Positions 5,665 through 9,462 of a DNA stretch of 45,302 bases are shown here, piece after piece. The stretch is from positions 1 through 45,302 of IMG/VR virus record IMGVR_UViG_3300021400_000002; one strand, given 5' to 3'. Source of the DNA: a virus. The stretch's first letter is position 1; every line of letters starts with the position of its first letter. The translations under genes were made by a program, and so were the position numbers. The notes below the pieces were generated by a model, which was not told where the DNA came from, ran no database searches, and worked only from the letters and a program-made list of their open reading frames with translations.

Positions 5665-5696
5665 AACTCCCGAGGATTTCTCGGGAGTTGCTTTTC
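5665..5696. terminator. Bidirectional intrinsic terminator
   Basis: 10-bp stem AACTCCCGAG/CTCGGGAGTT with loop GATTT, T-rich on both sides. It sits between convergent genes ending at 5660 (+) and 5695 (-). Confidence 0.8.
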
Positions 5697-6024
5697 ATTC
5701 TGATAATCGCCGCATTACGCTCCTATAAAGCGGCTTATCAATTGCATAGAGTGTAGCCATAAGTTCTTCGATGATGCTCCATGCTTGCATACTGTTCATG
5801 CCGCTAACTGCTTGACCGAATTCGCTCTCACTCGAATAGGTCACAGTGTCAATACCGCCCGAATCAGCTGAATATCCGCGTGTTGTCGGTATCTGTTCGG
5901 AAATCCCGAACAGTTCATGCTGAATGGTATAGTATGCTGCCAGTTTGTAGCAAGTATGAGCATCAGGATCACGTTCTCCGAGACATTCGGCAATAGCCGC
6001 TTGTAACTCTTGCTCAGTAATCAT
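5695..6024 (-). CDS. Hypothetical cargo protein (109 aa)
   Basis: ORF in track, MITEQELQAAIAECLGERDPDAHTCYKLAAYYTIQHELFG...; last gene of the accessory operon. Confidence 0.7.
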   Translation of the reverse strand: MITEQELQAAIAECLGERDPDAHTCYKLAAYYTIQHELFGISEQIPTTRGYSADSGGIDTVTYSSESEFGQAVSGMNSMQAWSIIEELMATLYAIDKPLYRSVMRRLSE

Positions 6025-6042
6025 CGGCTATCACCTGCCCTG

Positions 6043-6474
6043 TTACATTTCGCCGAGCTTTTTCATGAAGCGTTTGATTTCCTGCTTTTTCTCAGGCTCA
6101 TCAACCATGTTCATATACTCATGGAGCTTGCCCATCAAGTCATCTTCGGCTTCATCTCGGCTGTATCTACCCATGTCATCACGGCGTACATTACCCATTC
6201 TGCCTCTGGCATTGCTCATGCCTCTCATATCGCCGTCATAGCTTCTGCCACCGCGAGTATTACTGCGATTGCCGTTTCTGTTGTACTCATAGCCCCTGCC
6301 ATCGTTTGAGTAGTCGATTTCATTTTCCATAGCTTCATTGGTAAGCAGAGCCATTTTCAGCTTTGCGAGGTTTTTTGCATACTCAATTTCACGTTCGCTG
6401 AGGTCTCCTGTTGTCTCAACTTTGCGATCCATCTTTTCAAGTTCTCGGTCTGTATAATTGCATAATCCGTGCAT
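6043..6474 (-). CDS. Hypothetical cargo protein with an Arg/Gly/Asn/Met-rich low-complexity core (143 aa)
   Basis: Helical ends flank GRGYEYNRNGNRSNTRGGRSYDGDMRGMSNARGRMGNVRRDDMGRY. Confidence 0.7.
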   Translation of the reverse strand: MHGLCNYTDRELEKMDRKVETTGDLSEREIEYAKNLAKLKMALLTNEAMENEIDYSNDGRGYEYNRNGNRSNTRGGRSYDGDMRGMSNARGRMGNVRRDDMGRYSRDEAEDDLMGKLHEYMNMVDEPEKKQEIKRFMKKLGEM

Positions 6475-6487
6475 ATGTATCCTCCTT

Positions 6488-6943
6488 TCAGGCTATTCTT
6501 GTAACACTTATCGATGCTCCACGCCTTACCGCAAGCGAGGGAGTAGGTGTAACAGCCGCATCATCTACCGTTGCATCAACGTATGCTGCTGACACGGATA
6601 CACAGCATCCGCAAGGTACTGTGATCGGGATAGATGTGTTGATGTGCCAGTATTCTCCTACTGCCGCAGGAGTAACTATCGCAATGCTATCGGGGATAGC
6701 AACACCATTGATCGTAATAGCAACAGCTATCGGTGTTACTTCTCCGTCTTCAGGTATCGCGATGTTACCCTGAACTGTTACCTCATATCTTGCGAAGCGG
6801 TTAGTCGTGTTGCCCTTCAAGGTAAGAACTCCTGTAGTAATAGGGATTACATTTCCTTTACTACATGGGATAGATACAATGTCAAATGGAATAGTGCCAT
6901 TCAAAGCAACATTATTGTCAGTTGACGTAATATACCTCGGCAT
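6488..6943 (-). CDS. Beta-rich protein, tentatively BclA C-terminal/C1q-TNF-like jelly roll (151 aa)
   Basis: Alternating beta pattern, ...AVAITINGVAIPDS... and C-terminal ASISVTRIA resemble my recollection of the BclA C-terminal domain. Contains a PCGCC motif. Confidence 0.45.
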   Translation of the reverse strand: MPRYITSTDNNVALNGTIPFDIVSIPCSKGNVIPITTGVLTLKGNTTNRFARYEVTVQGNIAIPEDGEVTPIAVAITINGVAIPDSIAIVTPAAVGEYWHINTSIPITVPCGCCVSVSAAYVDATVDDAAVTPTPSLAVRRGASISVTRIA

Positions 6944-6956
6944 GATATCACCTCAC

Positions 6957-7946
6957 TTAACCGTTGGCAAAACCATAGCCGCCACAGCCACAGCCTGCAT
7001 TACTGCCTGCTACGTTCTGTGAACAAGTAAAGATAGGCTGATTACCATATACGGGCACGGTGTTTACAGGACAGTTCTTCAGCCTGTTATACAGAGCATC
7101 TATCTCATTGTTCTGTCCTGCAAGGATAGTTGCTGTCTGAGCTGTCTGTGAAGCCTGCATGTTAGCCATGTTGACAGCGTTCTGAAGACCGATATTTTCT
7201 CTCTGAGCCTGTGCGAGCTGAGATTTCACGCCGTCAAGTTCAAGAGCACACAGCTTGTCAAGGATTGCCTGTGTGCCTCTGGTCTGACTGTCTATGATGT
7301 CTCTTGTGTTGTTTGCATCCGCAAAGCGTGTTGCGTTGCCCTCGTTCTGCACGATGTTCTGGGTCTGGCAAGTAGCAAGCCTGTTGTCACAGCAGCACTG
7401 AGCCAGCTGTGAGGACAGATTGGTCAGCCCCTGAGTGTTAGCTGTCTGAGCCGCGAAGGATCTCTCCAGTGCAGCTATCTCGTTACCATACATCTGCTGT
7501 GTAAGTGCGTTCTGTGCGCCTGTGATAGCGGATACAATGCCATTGCCTGTCTGGCTTATGTTCTGGTTAACTCCTGCAAAGCCTCCGCAGAGTGCTGTCT
7601 GAACGTCACCGAAGCCGCTTGTTACCGCGTTCTGGATACTGTTAACGCTGGTGTTCAGCATCTGCTCCCTGAAACCGTCATTGATGTTCTGGCTATTGTT
7701 CAGCCAAGGATAGAGACCGAAGCCGTCCATCATGCCCATTCCCATCATTGCACCGTAACCGCCGCCAAAGCCACCAAAGCCGAAGCCGCCATTACACAGC
7801 GCGATCAGGAACAGGATTCCAAGCCAACTGTCTCCGCCATTGCCGAACAGTCCGCCGCCAAAGTTGCCGCCATAGGGCATTGAGTAAGCTGGTGCTACTG
7901 GCATATTGAAGCCTACACCGTTTTCATCTGTAAGTGCCATATGCAC
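6957..7946 (-). CDS. Gly-rich, membrane-anchored, Gln/Asn-rich and Cys-cluster protein of unknown function (329 aa)
   Basis: N-terminus GGNFGGGLFGNGG, then hydrophobic WLGILFLIALC, then GGFGFGGFGGGYG. Long Q/N-rich helical region with QCCCDNRLATC. C-terminus GCGCGGYGFANG. Confidence 0.7.
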   Translation of the reverse strand: MHMALTDENGVGFNMPVAPAYSMPYGGNFGGGLFGNGGDSWLGILFLIALCNGGFGFGGFGGGYGAMMGMGMMDGFGLYPWLNNSQNINDGFREQMLNTSVNSIQNAVTSGFGDVQTALCGGFAGVNQNISQTGNGIVSAITGAQNALTQQMYGNEIAALERSFAAQTANTQGLTNLSSQLAQCCCDNRLATCQTQNIVQNEGNATRFADANNTRDIIDSQTRGTQAILDKLCALELDGVKSQLAQAQRENIGLQNAVNMANMQASQTAQTATILAGQNNEIDALYNRLKNCPVNTVPVYGNQPIFTCSQNVAGSNAGCGCGGYGFANG

Positions 7947-7954
7947 TCCTTTCT

Positions 7955-8332: not shown

Positions 8333-8738
8333 TGCTTATATCCTCCTTCAAGATTTCCACATCAAGCTTCAATTCGTCATACAGTGTACGGAGAGCCGCT
8401 ATATCAGCGGTTATTTTTTCGGGTATCGCTATACTACTATCTGCCTTTTCGCTTGCTGTGGGCGCACTCTGTGCATTCTGCGGCACATCTGTTTCCTCGA
8501 CTAGTCTGTACCGCTTGAATATAGGTCTGTCAAGCTGTGATTGCCCCATTGTTTTGGTATAGCAGTATGGGCTATTCTCATCGATGAAAGTTACGGAATT
8601 ATTCGGAGCAACAGGATAGTTTCGGGCTACCGCCTCATTCTGAACAGTAACTATACTGCCGCTTTGCTGTGGCGGATATGTAGTCATCATTGGAGGTATG
8701 CCGTAACTTGCAGGATAAAAAGGATTGTATGCCATCAT
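8292..8738 (-). CDS. Hypothetical protein with a Pro/Tyr/Met-rich N-terminus and an acidic coiled-coil tail (148 aa)
   Basis: MMAYNPFYPASYGIPPMMTTYPPQQSGSIVTVQNEAVARNYPVAPNNSVTFIDENSPYCYTK... Confidence 0.7.
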   Translation of the reverse strand: MMAYNPFYPASYGIPPMMTTYPPQQSGSIVTVQNEAVARNYPVAPNNSVTFIDENSPYCYTKTMGQSQLDRPIFKRYRLVEETDVPQNAQSAPTASEKADSSIAIPEKITADIAALRTLYDELKLDVEILKEDISNAKSADAKSLTSE

Positions 8739-8739
8739 G

Positions 8740-9114
8740 TCACTCCTTTGTGTAGTAGTATATCGGAATTGTCATGCTGCTGTCCCAGCTGTCGTATATT
8801 GCACCATTCTCCACGCAGACAACGTGTGTACCTGTTGCTAGTATGTAGATACCATCGGGATTATCTGCCGCAAATTGAGCCGTTGTGTAGCAGTCAGGGC
8901 ATAAGTCGGGAATAGTATGCCTTTTATAGCCATGCTGTCTAAGATATCTATCCCAGACCGCATTGTTATTGCCCCATTCTTTGTCAACAAAGCCCTGAAC
9001 ACACAGTGCCGTATATACTGTATCCCAGTCTTTGTTTTCTGCCTTGCATATAGCTCTTACAACGCAGTCCCCGGCATGAGATAATTTTGGATTCGGGTTA
9101 TAATGTTTATACAT
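8740..9114 (-). CDS. Putative papain-fold cysteine peptidase-like protein (124 aa)
   Basis: Candidate Cys-His-Asp triad: AGDCVVRAICKA ... GTHVVCVENGAIYDSWDS. ATG 9114 preceded by AGGTGA (the track ORF starts at a GTG at 9123). Confidence 0.5.
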   Translation of the reverse strand: MYKHYNPNPKLSHAGDCVVRAICKAENKDWDTVYTALCVQGFVDKEWGNNNAVWDRYLRQHGYKRHTIPDLCPDCYTTAQFAADNPDGIYILATGTHVVCVENGAIYDSWDSSMTIPIYYYTKE

Positions 9115-9140
9115 CTCTATCACCTACAATGAGAATACAA

Positions 9141-9180
9141 TAAAAAAAGCCCGAAAACAAGGAAGTTCTCAGGCTTTTTT
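9141..9180. terminator. Intrinsic terminator (A-tract/hairpin/T-tract, bidirectional form)
   Basis: AAAAAAAGCCCGAAAAC...GTTCTCAGGCTTTTTT; imperfect 11-position stem (9 pairs). Confidence 0.55.
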
Positions 9181-9207
9181 CAGGCAAATATACGGCAAAT
9201 TAAAGGC

Positions 9208-9243
9208 AACAAAAAAGGCTGTCAAGCGATATGCTCAACAGCC
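9208..9243 (-). terminator. Intrinsic terminator at the stop of the regulator gene
   Basis: Minus strand reads GGCTGT-13 nt loop-ACAGCC followed by TTTTTTGTTG; in tandem with the 9141-9180 hairpin. Confidence 0.6.
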
Positions 9244-9462
9244 GTCTATGTGTCTATGGATGATCCGTTCACATCGGTGAACAATGTATCGAATATTCCT
9301 TGATGATAACTCAAATTCCTCTGCAAGCGGCTCAATGCATATACCGTCAATGAGCCTACGCTTCATGATCTTGCGGTCTCTCTCTACTTTTATCCAGTTA
9401 TCTATCAACTCACCTAGTTCAGAGTTGCTTATATGCTCATACCGACTATGCATTGTTATCAC
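9235..9462 (-). CDS. Small sigma-70 region-4-like HTH regulator (75 aa)
   Basis: ERDRKIMKRRLIDGICIEPLAEEFELSSRNIRYIVHRCERII matches the region-4 pattern (R..il.lr..dG.s.e.iAee...S...v). Confidence 0.6.
   Translation of the reverse strand: MITMHSRYEHISNSELGELIDNWIKVERDRKIMKRRLIDGICIEPLAEEFELSSRNIRYIVHRCERIIHRHIDGC

Follow-up and report, generated by a model that had tools for sequence, protein, structure and literature searches.

In the Bacillus cereus group, BxpB/ExsF trimers bind terminal peptides of fiber proteins (PDB 9h3d; PMC10470788). The BclA-BxpB/ExsFA and F-BclA/F-Anchor-ExsF pairs of these bacteria, the stalk-and-knob fibers of viruses and the moron or lysogenic-conversion cassettes of phages are the described systems that come closest to the gene block reported here. 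The block lies on the minus strand at positions 5665-9498 of the IMG/VR virus record IMGVR_UViG_3300021400_000002, a stretch of 45,302 nucleotides (nt) that was analyzed over its full length and is called the window below; coordinates given for parts of the block refer to its minus strand. An original prediction had described the region as cargo genes of odd composition behind a regulator. Its account of the open reading frames (ORFs), the tandem terminators, the structured leader and a BclA/C1q-TNF fold was accurate, and all eight minus-strand ORFs are present at the coordinates given below. We found that the block is a self-contained, mobile, co-linear and phage-specific accessory operon. 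Its core consists of six genes, which encode proteins of 127, 148, 75, 329, 151 and 143 amino acids (aa), and a gene for a 109-aa protein and the regulator gene are often added. By analogy with the systems named above, we tentatively see in it a late-expressed accessory module whose products may form a cytoplasmic fiber-plus-hub assembly destined for the virion or the membrane, a reading that is possible rather than probable.

Linkage of the genes was analyzed in 80 viral (IMG/VR) loci and 45 contigs of metagenome-assembled genomes (MAGs) that encode a relative of the 329-aa protein, plus several loci found by exact look-up. Partners on the same strand were sought with hidden Markov models (HMMs) built for each family, and only loci with enough flanking sequence were counted. 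The loci were selected via the 329-aa gene, and the counts are therefore conditional frequencies. The 329-aa gene is accompanied by the 127-aa gene in 114 of 119 loci, by the 148-aa gene in 117 of 122, by the Gln-rich 75-aa gene in 113 of 126, by the 151-aa gene in 99 of 109 and by the 143-aa gene in 99 of 105. The 109-aa gene was found in 50 of 102 loci and the regulator gene in 75 of 114. Across the 129 related phage loci compared, the five core partners are present in 90-96% of those with enough flanking sequence, and the gene order is co-linear in 115 of 122. The gene set had been supposed to be linked across prophages, and the co-occurrence analysis revealed conserved linkage far beyond chance. 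A mere juxtaposition of unrelated small morons that form no functional unit might have explained why the 127-aa family is found alone elsewhere and why many loci do without the regulator or the 109-aa gene. The co-occurrence and co-linearity of the core, kept while the 329-aa proteins of the carriers diverge to ~33% identity, speak against this explanation, which is almost certainly wrong.

Besides the IMG/VR and MAG loci, the carriers include a cultured phage, a phage-plasmid encoding ParAB and Rep3, and a 135-kb phage. Their hosts are Lachnospiraceae, Ruminococcus, Oscillospiraceae and related gut and rumen Clostridia. The sole cultured carrier found is Butyrivibrio phage Ceridwen, which was also the sole match in a DNA-level search of a phage collection. 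It has the entire cassette directly after the lysin, with QHJ73768 and QHJ73769 as the homologs of the 329-aa and 151-aa proteins, lacks an integrase and has been observed in the lytic cycle only. Its host is B. fibrisolvens DSM 3071, and Butyrivibrio is a non-sporulating genus. In a metagenomic protein collection there are at least 8000 relatives of the 329-aa protein (clusters at 90% identity), and 5057 (single sequence) or 7935 (profile) relatives of the 151-aa protein; none of them has a Pfam domain or a name. Searches of the eight block proteins against Pfam, NCBIfam, PHROGs and PADLOC returned only PHROGs of unknown function and sub-threshold helix-turn-helix (HTH) matches; PADLOC models were matched at noise level only. 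The block had been said to contain no recognisable virion, lysis or replication function, and indeed no match to such families, nor to defense families, was obtained. A literature search found no description of the cassette and no known system with a matching gene set. Two divergent copies of the cassette are located ~42 kb apart on IMGVR_UViG_3300021256_000075 (100 kb; loci L010 and L030), which could represent two prophages or a chimeric assembly. At locus L134 (361-3347; also L135), a diversity-generating retroelement composed of a DUF6273 protein, bAvd and a reverse transcriptase is located directly 5' of a reduced cassette without regulator.

The 151-aa protein (6488-6943) is a predicted stand-alone jelly-roll protein of the TNF/C1q type, resembling the BclA C-terminal domain and BxpB. 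Its AlphaFold2 (AF2) model has a predicted local distance difference test (pLDDT) value of 86.6 and a predicted TM-score (pTM) of 0.80, and shows the compact ten-strand beta-sandwich of ~130-150 residues that defines C1q/TNF jelly rolls. The top Foldseek matches in the PDB were the BclA C-terminal domain, BxpB/ExsFA and F-BclA (E-values 3e-7 to 1e-5, TM-scores 0.65-0.72). Phage fiber knobs and TNF ligands followed. The matches to BclA, BxpB, F-BclA and TNF ligands had a probability of 1.00 and TM-scores of 0.56-0.72. The BclA C-terminal/C1q-TNF fold, advanced tentatively in the original prediction, was confirmed by these two methods. Judged from the model, the likeness to BclA and BxpB is at fold level only. 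The structural alignments have 14-16% identity, and single-sequence and profile searches of PDB sequences did not recover BxpB/ExsFA (8d02, 7r1m). Membership in the BclA family was rejected, as the protein is a bare domain without the N-terminal targeting peptide and the GXX region, and no collagen match was found.

In the viral structure library BFVD, the best Foldseek matches of the 151-aa protein were uncharacterized stand-alone gut-phage proteins of ~135 aa, and further matches included C1q/collagen fiber knobs, fibritin whiskers and tail-fiber tips. An exhaustive profile search placed 609 clusters (50% identity) in the family. None of the 150 best-scoring representatives exceeds 196 aa, most whole ones having ~130-160 aa, and thus the domain was not seen fused to a larger protein among these 150. 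Three cysteines (C27, C113 and C114) are conserved, and identity among the top 120 clusters is 75-97%.

The 329-aa protein (6957-7946; probable start ATG at 7940, giving 327 aa) is dominated by a long helix. It has a Gly/Phe/Met-rich N-terminus, a short Trp-flanked hydrophobic core, a helix of ~190 residues, a CCC-x6-C motif and a Pro/Cys-rich end with GCGCGG, its C-terminal peptide being CPVNTVPVYGNQPIFTC. The AF2 model (pLDDT 58) contains a short helix (41-51), Gly-rich disorder, a continuous helix (100-291, pLDDT 75-80) and a disordered tail. The hydrophobic segment, long helical region and Cys clusters noticed earlier were all recovered. Among 131 relatives, 96% have the hydrophobic core (e.g. 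WWILLLFILL, with Gly, Phe and Trp on its flanks). The relatives also conserve the C-terminal motif LYNRLxxCPVPxxPVYGxxPIFTC..GCGCG, and their median Cys count is 11. The protein matches phrog_16490 and is weakly similar to a crAss-like phage ORF annotated as 'spike'. The Gly/Trp hydrophobic core and the 190-residue helix are features that it would share with fusogens. A second membrane anchor was not found, the C-terminus being disordered and Pro/Cys-rich, and the cassette encodes no lipoprotein or second transmembrane protein.

These properties bear on a role in lysis or egress, in which a membrane-active 329-aa protein, loosely like a spanin, XhlA or a class I fusogen, would act with its partners to disrupt or remodel the envelope late in infection. 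The conserved Trp-flanked core and the long helix with conserved Cys would suit such a role, and so would the weak similarity to the crAss-like 'spike' ORF and to coronavirus spike HR1. In addition, the cassette adjoins the holin and the endolysin in most loci, on either side, and the Cys-His-Asp enzyme predicted from the 127-aa gene could be a cell-wall peptidase. However, the similarity to HR1 is not significant (E 0.6), the 329-aa protein lacks a C-terminal membrane anchor, and no match to holin, spanin, XhlA, CHAP or NlpC/P60 models was obtained. Moreover, the window phage already has a complete holin and GH25 lysin, the hosts are monoderm, and a TNF-fold trimer with three low-complexity proteins is without precedent in lysis cassettes. 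We consider the lysis or egress role quite unlikely.

The first gene of the operon encodes a predicted Cys-His-Asp enzyme of 127 aa with a CPxC motif (8740-9123; gene callers start it at ATG 9114, giving 124 aa). Residues D19, C20, R23, H100 and D111 are invariant in 71 relatives and CPxC is nearly so, in line with the Cys/His/Asp protein that had been recognized here. The order of the catalytic residues (C20, H100, D111) is that of clan CA, and the Cys...His...Asp order suggests a papain-like fold. No member of the 71 matched a Pfam model of this clan (C39, CHAP, NlpC/P60, Transglut_core), and no PDB profile match was found; the protein matches phrog_3754, of unknown function. Processing of a bacteriocin or C39-type leader was dropped as a role for the cassette, no transporter being encoded. 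In Bacillus Tsamsa-like phages, relatives annotated as 'putative peptidase' occur alone in early regions, beside a Ser/Thr kinase and an Ocr-like anti-restriction protein (Bacillus phage Izhevsk, 9583-9978). Others are found in Geobacillus phage GBK2 and in Prevotella Lak megaphages.

The other proteins of the block are small and mostly helical or of low complexity. In the 148-aa protein (8292-8738), an N-terminus rich in Pro, Gln and Tyr is accompanied by a conserved ~45-aa domain and a short coiled coil of acidic character; phrog_21718 is matched in 43 of 45 relatives. The 75-aa protein (8105-8332) is Gln-rich and helical, with no family match in Pfam or PHROGs. The 143-aa protein (6043-6474), for whose family no match was found, has an N-terminal helix, a disordered stretch rich in Gly, Tyr, Ser and Arg with the motif ARRDSMGRYS, and a C-terminal helix. 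The helical 109-aa protein (5695-6024) has the conserved N-terminus MITExDLxEAIAECQGxRNPNANTC. Searches with the 127-, 143- and 148-aa families gave nothing consistent in Pfam and PHROGs, and single-sequence and profile searches with the 127-, 151-, 329- and 143-aa families gave nothing significant among PDB sequences. No N-terminal signal peptide was found in the sequences of the block proteins; coat and exosporium proteins likewise lack signal peptides. Modules of the type VII secretion system (T7SS LXG/WXG), a capsid decoration protein and a second endolysin were dropped as candidates, with no supporting match.

Superinfection exclusion, anti-defense or another form of host takeover, exerted inside the infected or lysogenic cell, would agree with the cytoplasmic or membrane-bound location of all products. 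It would also agree with the variable position of this accessory cassette, early in one phage, and with the Ocr-like protein and Ser/Thr kinase encoded near the 127-aa family in Bacillus phages. On the other hand, PADLOC gave no match, known genes of this kind do not resemble a set of six co-linear genes for strongly conserved proteins of structural type, and the TNF/C1q fold is typical of adhesins and fibers. Such a module is very unlikely.

The regulator gene (9235-9462) encodes a 75-aa stand-alone HTH protein resembling sigma-70 region 4. A putative sigma-70-type promoter, TTGATA-17-TATACT, matches the consensus just 5' of it (9470-9498). The window protein matched Mor (E 0.05), Sigma70_r4 (E 0.13, sub-threshold) and TIGR02937 (E 6e-4). 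Among 59 members of the family, 50 matched Sigma70_r4 (best E 6e-8), 40 r4_2, 28 Mor and 5 Phage_antitermQ, the last with E 4e-4 or weaker. The family profile detected SigF region 4 in the PDB (E 3e-5), and weak matches to late-activator PHROGs were seen. The region-4-like nature assigned earlier to the regulator therefore holds at the level of the family, the window copy being below threshold. Relatives have 62-89 aa and align with region 4 alone. Because the proteins are this short, the regulator is a region-4 HTH standing alone rather than a sigma factor, and a complete sigma factor was rejected, regions 2 (and 3) being absent.

Two consecutive terminators follow the regulator gene, as predicted, and leave scarcely room for a promoter (~17-27 nt from the second T-run to the start codon). 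Terminator 1 (9217-9243) overlaps the stop codon of the regulator. Terminator or attenuator 2 (9141-9182), an 18-bp stem with a T-run, lies 17 nt 5' of the first operon gene. Between them is a tandem direct repeat, TTTGCCgtataTTTGCCtg (9181-9199), which we consider a candidate operator. Compared with shuffled sequences, the gap from the regulator to the 127-aa gene has a much more stable fold (z = -6.6). Of the 47 loci with the two genes next to each other, 45 have a terminator-like hairpin in this gap, and 13 of these have at least two. In a subset of loci, the last hairpin is preceded by direct repeats in tandem with an ~11-bp period, which read TGCAC-N6-TGCAC in many and TTTGCC-N5-TTTGCC in the window and may be the site engaged by the regulator. 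No second copy of the regulator or of TTTGCCgtataTTTGCCtg was found in the window. A perfect TTGACA (9217-9225) is part of the 3' arm of terminator 1, and a weak TAATTT follows 17 nt downstream, directly before the tandem repeats. A promoter nested in terminator 1, whose transcript would run straight into terminator 2, is possible from these motifs. In some loci (L010, L011, L013, L021, L031, L036, L050, L056, L072, L079 and others), and not in the window, an additional ORF of ~45 aa (M..LIARLIDCGM.R..A......Y...GKLDEFERYVESVEE) is present between the regulator and the 127-aa gene, its end abutting or overlapping the start of the latter.

This layout could parallel lambda Q-pR'-tR', and equally could represent an activator-dependent promoter that overlaps a terminator. 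Like lambda Q/pR'/tR' and Mu Mor/C, the cassette has a small regulator gene and then, in those 45 of 47 loci, a terminator before the operon that the regulator would control, and the weak matches of the family to Mor and Phage_antitermQ point in the same direction. It differs from both in that the regulator (62-89 aa) consists of little more than sigma region 4, and in that an accessory operon, rather than the phage late genes, would be controlled.

A second structured region precedes the 329-aa gene and forms the leader of the second half of the operon. The gap of 158 nt (7947-8104; fold z = -3.7) contains, after a weak hairpin (8081-8104), an inverted repeat with TTGATATAAA, resembling an extended -10 (~8009-8032), and two stem-loops, SL1 (7976-8004) and SL2 (7955-7970). 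The order is inverted repeat, TTGATATAAA(T), SL1, a CUUAC-like linker, SL2 and the ribosome-binding site (RBS) AGAAAGGAG. A structured untranslated region with a terminator-like hairpin had been expected here. The structured region was confirmed, but the hairpin at 8081-8104 is AT-rich and weak and was not flagged by the terminator scan. The architecture of the window leader is common to 19 of 66 loci, in which 17 distinct SL1 and 13 distinct SL2 sequences occur with pairing kept. Of these 19 sequences, 12 combine a perfect SL1 (7 bp or longer) with an SL2 of 4 bp or more, compared with 11 of 1900 shuffles, and RNAalifold detected compensatory changes in all eight SL1 pairs (8/8). Rfam offered no credible family for this leader or for the region behind the regulator.

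In the leader, TGATATAAA may be an extended -10 promoter or a processing site. Either role would give the distal genes an mRNA with a stem-loop at the 5' end, followed by a strong RBS. A sporulation-sigma promoter 5' of the 329-aa gene was dropped, with no supporting match; the conserved TTGATATAAA is presumably closer to the extended sigma-A -10 than to the sigma-K or sigma-E consensus. Another 24 loci have an alternative leader, a hairpin with the conserved loop GTGCGCAG. In these loci (L010, L011, L014, L016, L028, L036, L060, L136 and others) the arms covary around a loop (A/G)GTGCGCAG or GTGCACAG, and an AT-rich stretch and an RBS follow. The alternative loop holds the TGCAC-like word that is also tandemly repeated 5' of the 127-aa gene in many loci, and this word may be a shared operator.

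To map the genomic position of the cassette, lysin, holin, tail and integrase genes were located with iterated HMMs. Of 108 loci whose upstream flank is long enough, 56 have lysis genes on that side and on the same strand, typically at a distance of 2-5 kb. About half of the 130 loci listed have a detected integrase on the downstream side, encoded by the opposite strand and usually at 2-3 kb. The window agrees with this arrangement. As noted before, the block is located between the integrase arm, with a serine recombinase (3437-4858), and the lysis genes, with a GH25 lysin (11288-12184). The usual place of the cassette is the classic moron slot, after the lysin and before the integrase. Other moron features are the promoter-like site of its own (9470-9498), a closing terminator at the end of the operon (5665-5689, bidirectional, seen on both strands) and an insertion point that varies between backbones. 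Seven loci (L131, L134, L073, L096, L065, L091 and L107) have the cassette embedded in the late operon, with tail genes on one side and the holin/lysin on the other; pairwise identity of their 329-aa proteins is only 33-76%. In the 135-kb phage it comes directly behind the tape-measure and tail genes. The regulator gene is present in 45 of the 56 'after lysis' loci and in none of the 7 'before lysis' loci (Fisher p = 6e-5), the latter count coming from few loci with related sequences. The regulator is missing within the late operon, and co-expression with late genes is therefore suggested as the native timing. We read this as a cassette that needs no regulator inside the late transcript and brings its own switch when beyond the late terminator. 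The distribution of the regulator points to late expression in the lytic cycle.

The moron slot also brings up lysogenic conversion, in which products expressed from the prophage would alter the spore coat, the exosporium or the cell envelope, acting in the mother cell of spore-formers. The location between lysis genes and integrase supports it, together with the own promoter-like site and closing terminator and the extended -10-like motif of the leader, which would need no phage activator. The best fold matches are exosporium proteins (BclA, BxpB/ExsFA and F-BclA). Compositions rich in Cys, Tyr, Pro, Gly or Arg/Ser, without signal peptides, resemble those of coat proteins, and the hosts are Clostridia. 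However, the cassette is found in Ceridwen, a lytic phage without integrase of a non-sporulating host, it is embedded without regulator in the late operons of seven diverse loci, and a 135-kb phage and a phage-plasmid are among its carriers. The link to BclA/BxpB is one of fold only, and TNF/C1q knobs are equally typical of viral fibers. Conversion of the envelope or spore surface was the idea of the original prediction. The block is one unit, occupies the moron slot and encodes a BclA/BxpB-type fold, as this idea supposed, but the lytic Ceridwen, the late-operon loci and the regulator pattern have weakened it, and we now hold it to be unlikely.

The reading that we tentatively prefer, a late fiber-and-hub assembly, combines these results as follows. 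Outside the late transcript, the regulator would couple the operon to lytic development, turning it on by Q-like read-through of the terminators or by activation of a promoter overlapping them. The leader would give the distal-half proteins high or stabilized expression. The products would assemble in the cytoplasm as a fiber-and-hub structure. In it, the 329-aa protein may be an oligomeric coiled-coil stalk, anchored through its hydrophobic segment, and the 151-aa protein a trimeric hub with a proline-rich terminal peptide bound in it, much as BxpB/ExsF binds the N-terminus of BclA or F-Anchor. Maturation, cross-linking or adaptor functions could fall to the Cys-His-Asp enzyme and the low-complexity proteins. 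The assembly would be placed on the progeny virion or on the membrane of the infected cell and act in adsorption or egress, rather than being a spore-specific coat. A fiber-and-hub structure is favored because signal peptides are absent, the TNF fold stands alone, the coiled-coil partner has Pro-rich ends, and a triad enzyme and low-complexity partners are encoded with them. Late timing is favored because of the position after the lysin, the seven late-operon loci, the presence of the regulator in 45/56 versus 0/7 loci, the lytic Ceridwen and the late-activator and Mor matches.

Several observations weigh against this assembly or its timing. The slot between lysin and integrase holds non-structural morons, and structural genes are rarely found there. 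No virion-attachment domain is recognizable in the cassette proteins, and the hydrophobic core of the 329-aa protein has only ~10-12 residues. The extended -10-like TGATATAAA could drive constitutive expression, in the prophage as well. In one phage the cassette has an early-gene location, and the few loci behind the regulator contrast count here too. The 127-aa family occurs alone in early regions and may therefore have a host-directed role apart from the cassette.

The preferred fiber-and-hub reading can be extended to a new phage surface or membrane machine with a coiled coil stapled by disulfides or metal and bearing a Gly/Trp hydrophobic segment like a fusion peptide, a BxpB-like TNF-fold hub as its cap or anchor, Cys-His-Asp maturation and a region-4 switch at a terminator, which we regard as doubtful. 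Such a machine might be a phage counterpart of the exosporium anchor-and-fiber system, or a membrane-active entry or egress device of Gram-positive tailed phages, and we propose this with the same reserve. The six protein families, the regulator logic and the leader RNA are undescribed.

The module is common across phages of gut and rumen Clostridia, and its six core families are without Pfam domain or annotation. If it is a fiber of the virion or envelope, it would matter for the adsorption and host range of phages that infect major gut commensals. Were it expressed from prophages, the module would modify cell or spore surfaces on a wide scale. A stand-alone sigma-region-4 regulator before a terminator and a covarying 5' leader may be reusable beyond this operon. 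The cassette is experimentally tractable because its carrier Ceridwen has been cultured.

The surroundings of the block in the window are those of a complete temperate siphophage of ~45.2 kb. The genome appears circularly permuted, and versions of 45,177-45,250 bp were assembled from several metagenome samples (L128, L129). The late genes are on the minus strand and run down to the holin (13645-14103) and the GH25 lysin; between these two, ORFs of 282 and 197 aa (12199-13645) have no Pfam match. Three unannotated plus-strand ORFs of 146, 145 and 226 aa (9649-11194) lie between the lysin and the block. They too are without Pfam match, and they converge on the late operon, separating it from the cassette. 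Beyond the block there are two small ORFs and an Arc-like gene before the serine recombinase. The 60-aa Arc-like ribbon-helix-helix protein (4968-5150, E 2e-5) adjoins the recombinase and could be a directionality factor or a regulator, and the attachment site is probably located between 4858 and 5695. A cI/Cro-like HTH pair, a Bro-N antirepressor and a Sipho_Gp157 gene follow past the integrase.

Compared with the BclA-BxpB/ExsFA and F-BclA/F-Anchor-ExsF systems, the cassette shares the TNF/C1q jelly roll of the 151-aa protein (TM-scores as given above), which, like BxpB/ExsFA, is stand-alone, of ~150 aa and without signal peptide. A fiber-type partner with proline-rich terminal peptides is also encoded alongside. 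However, the cassette has no detectable sequence homology to these systems and lacks basal-layer proteins of the ExsY/CotY type. Its fiber partner is a predicted alpha-helical coiled coil with a hydrophobic segment instead of a collagen-like triple helix, and it is phage-borne, including in a lytic phage of a non-sporulating host. With viral stalk-and-knob fibers, such as the Sf6-type tail-needle knob, the PRD1 P5 spike, fibritin whiskers and the collagen/C1q proteins of giant viruses, the cassette would share the combination of a coiled-coil stalk and a TNF-fold knob, cytoplasmic synthesis and, in some carriers, the neighborhood of tail or lysis genes. It differs from them in that stalk and knob are separate polypeptides, the knob being unfused among the representatives listed. 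Moreover, the N-terminus of the stalk is hydrophobic and Gly-rich in place of a virion-attachment domain, and the cassette is usually located downstream of the lysin with its own regulator. Phage morons and lysogenic-conversion cassettes have in common with it the location, the own promoter-like site, the flanking terminators, dispensability and mobility between backbones. In contrast to their one or two genes, the cassette has six to eight co-linear ones, and it also occurs within late operons and in a lytic phage, with a regulator distribution that points to late expression. For membership in BclA, BxpB, complete sigma factors, Q, clan CA, holins or spanins and defense systems, at least one defining feature in each case fails or is not demonstrated. 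The fold of the 151-aa protein and the HTH of the regulator belong to known superfamilies, and the operon itself is a phage accessory of the moron type, possibly a stalk-and-knob fiber system.

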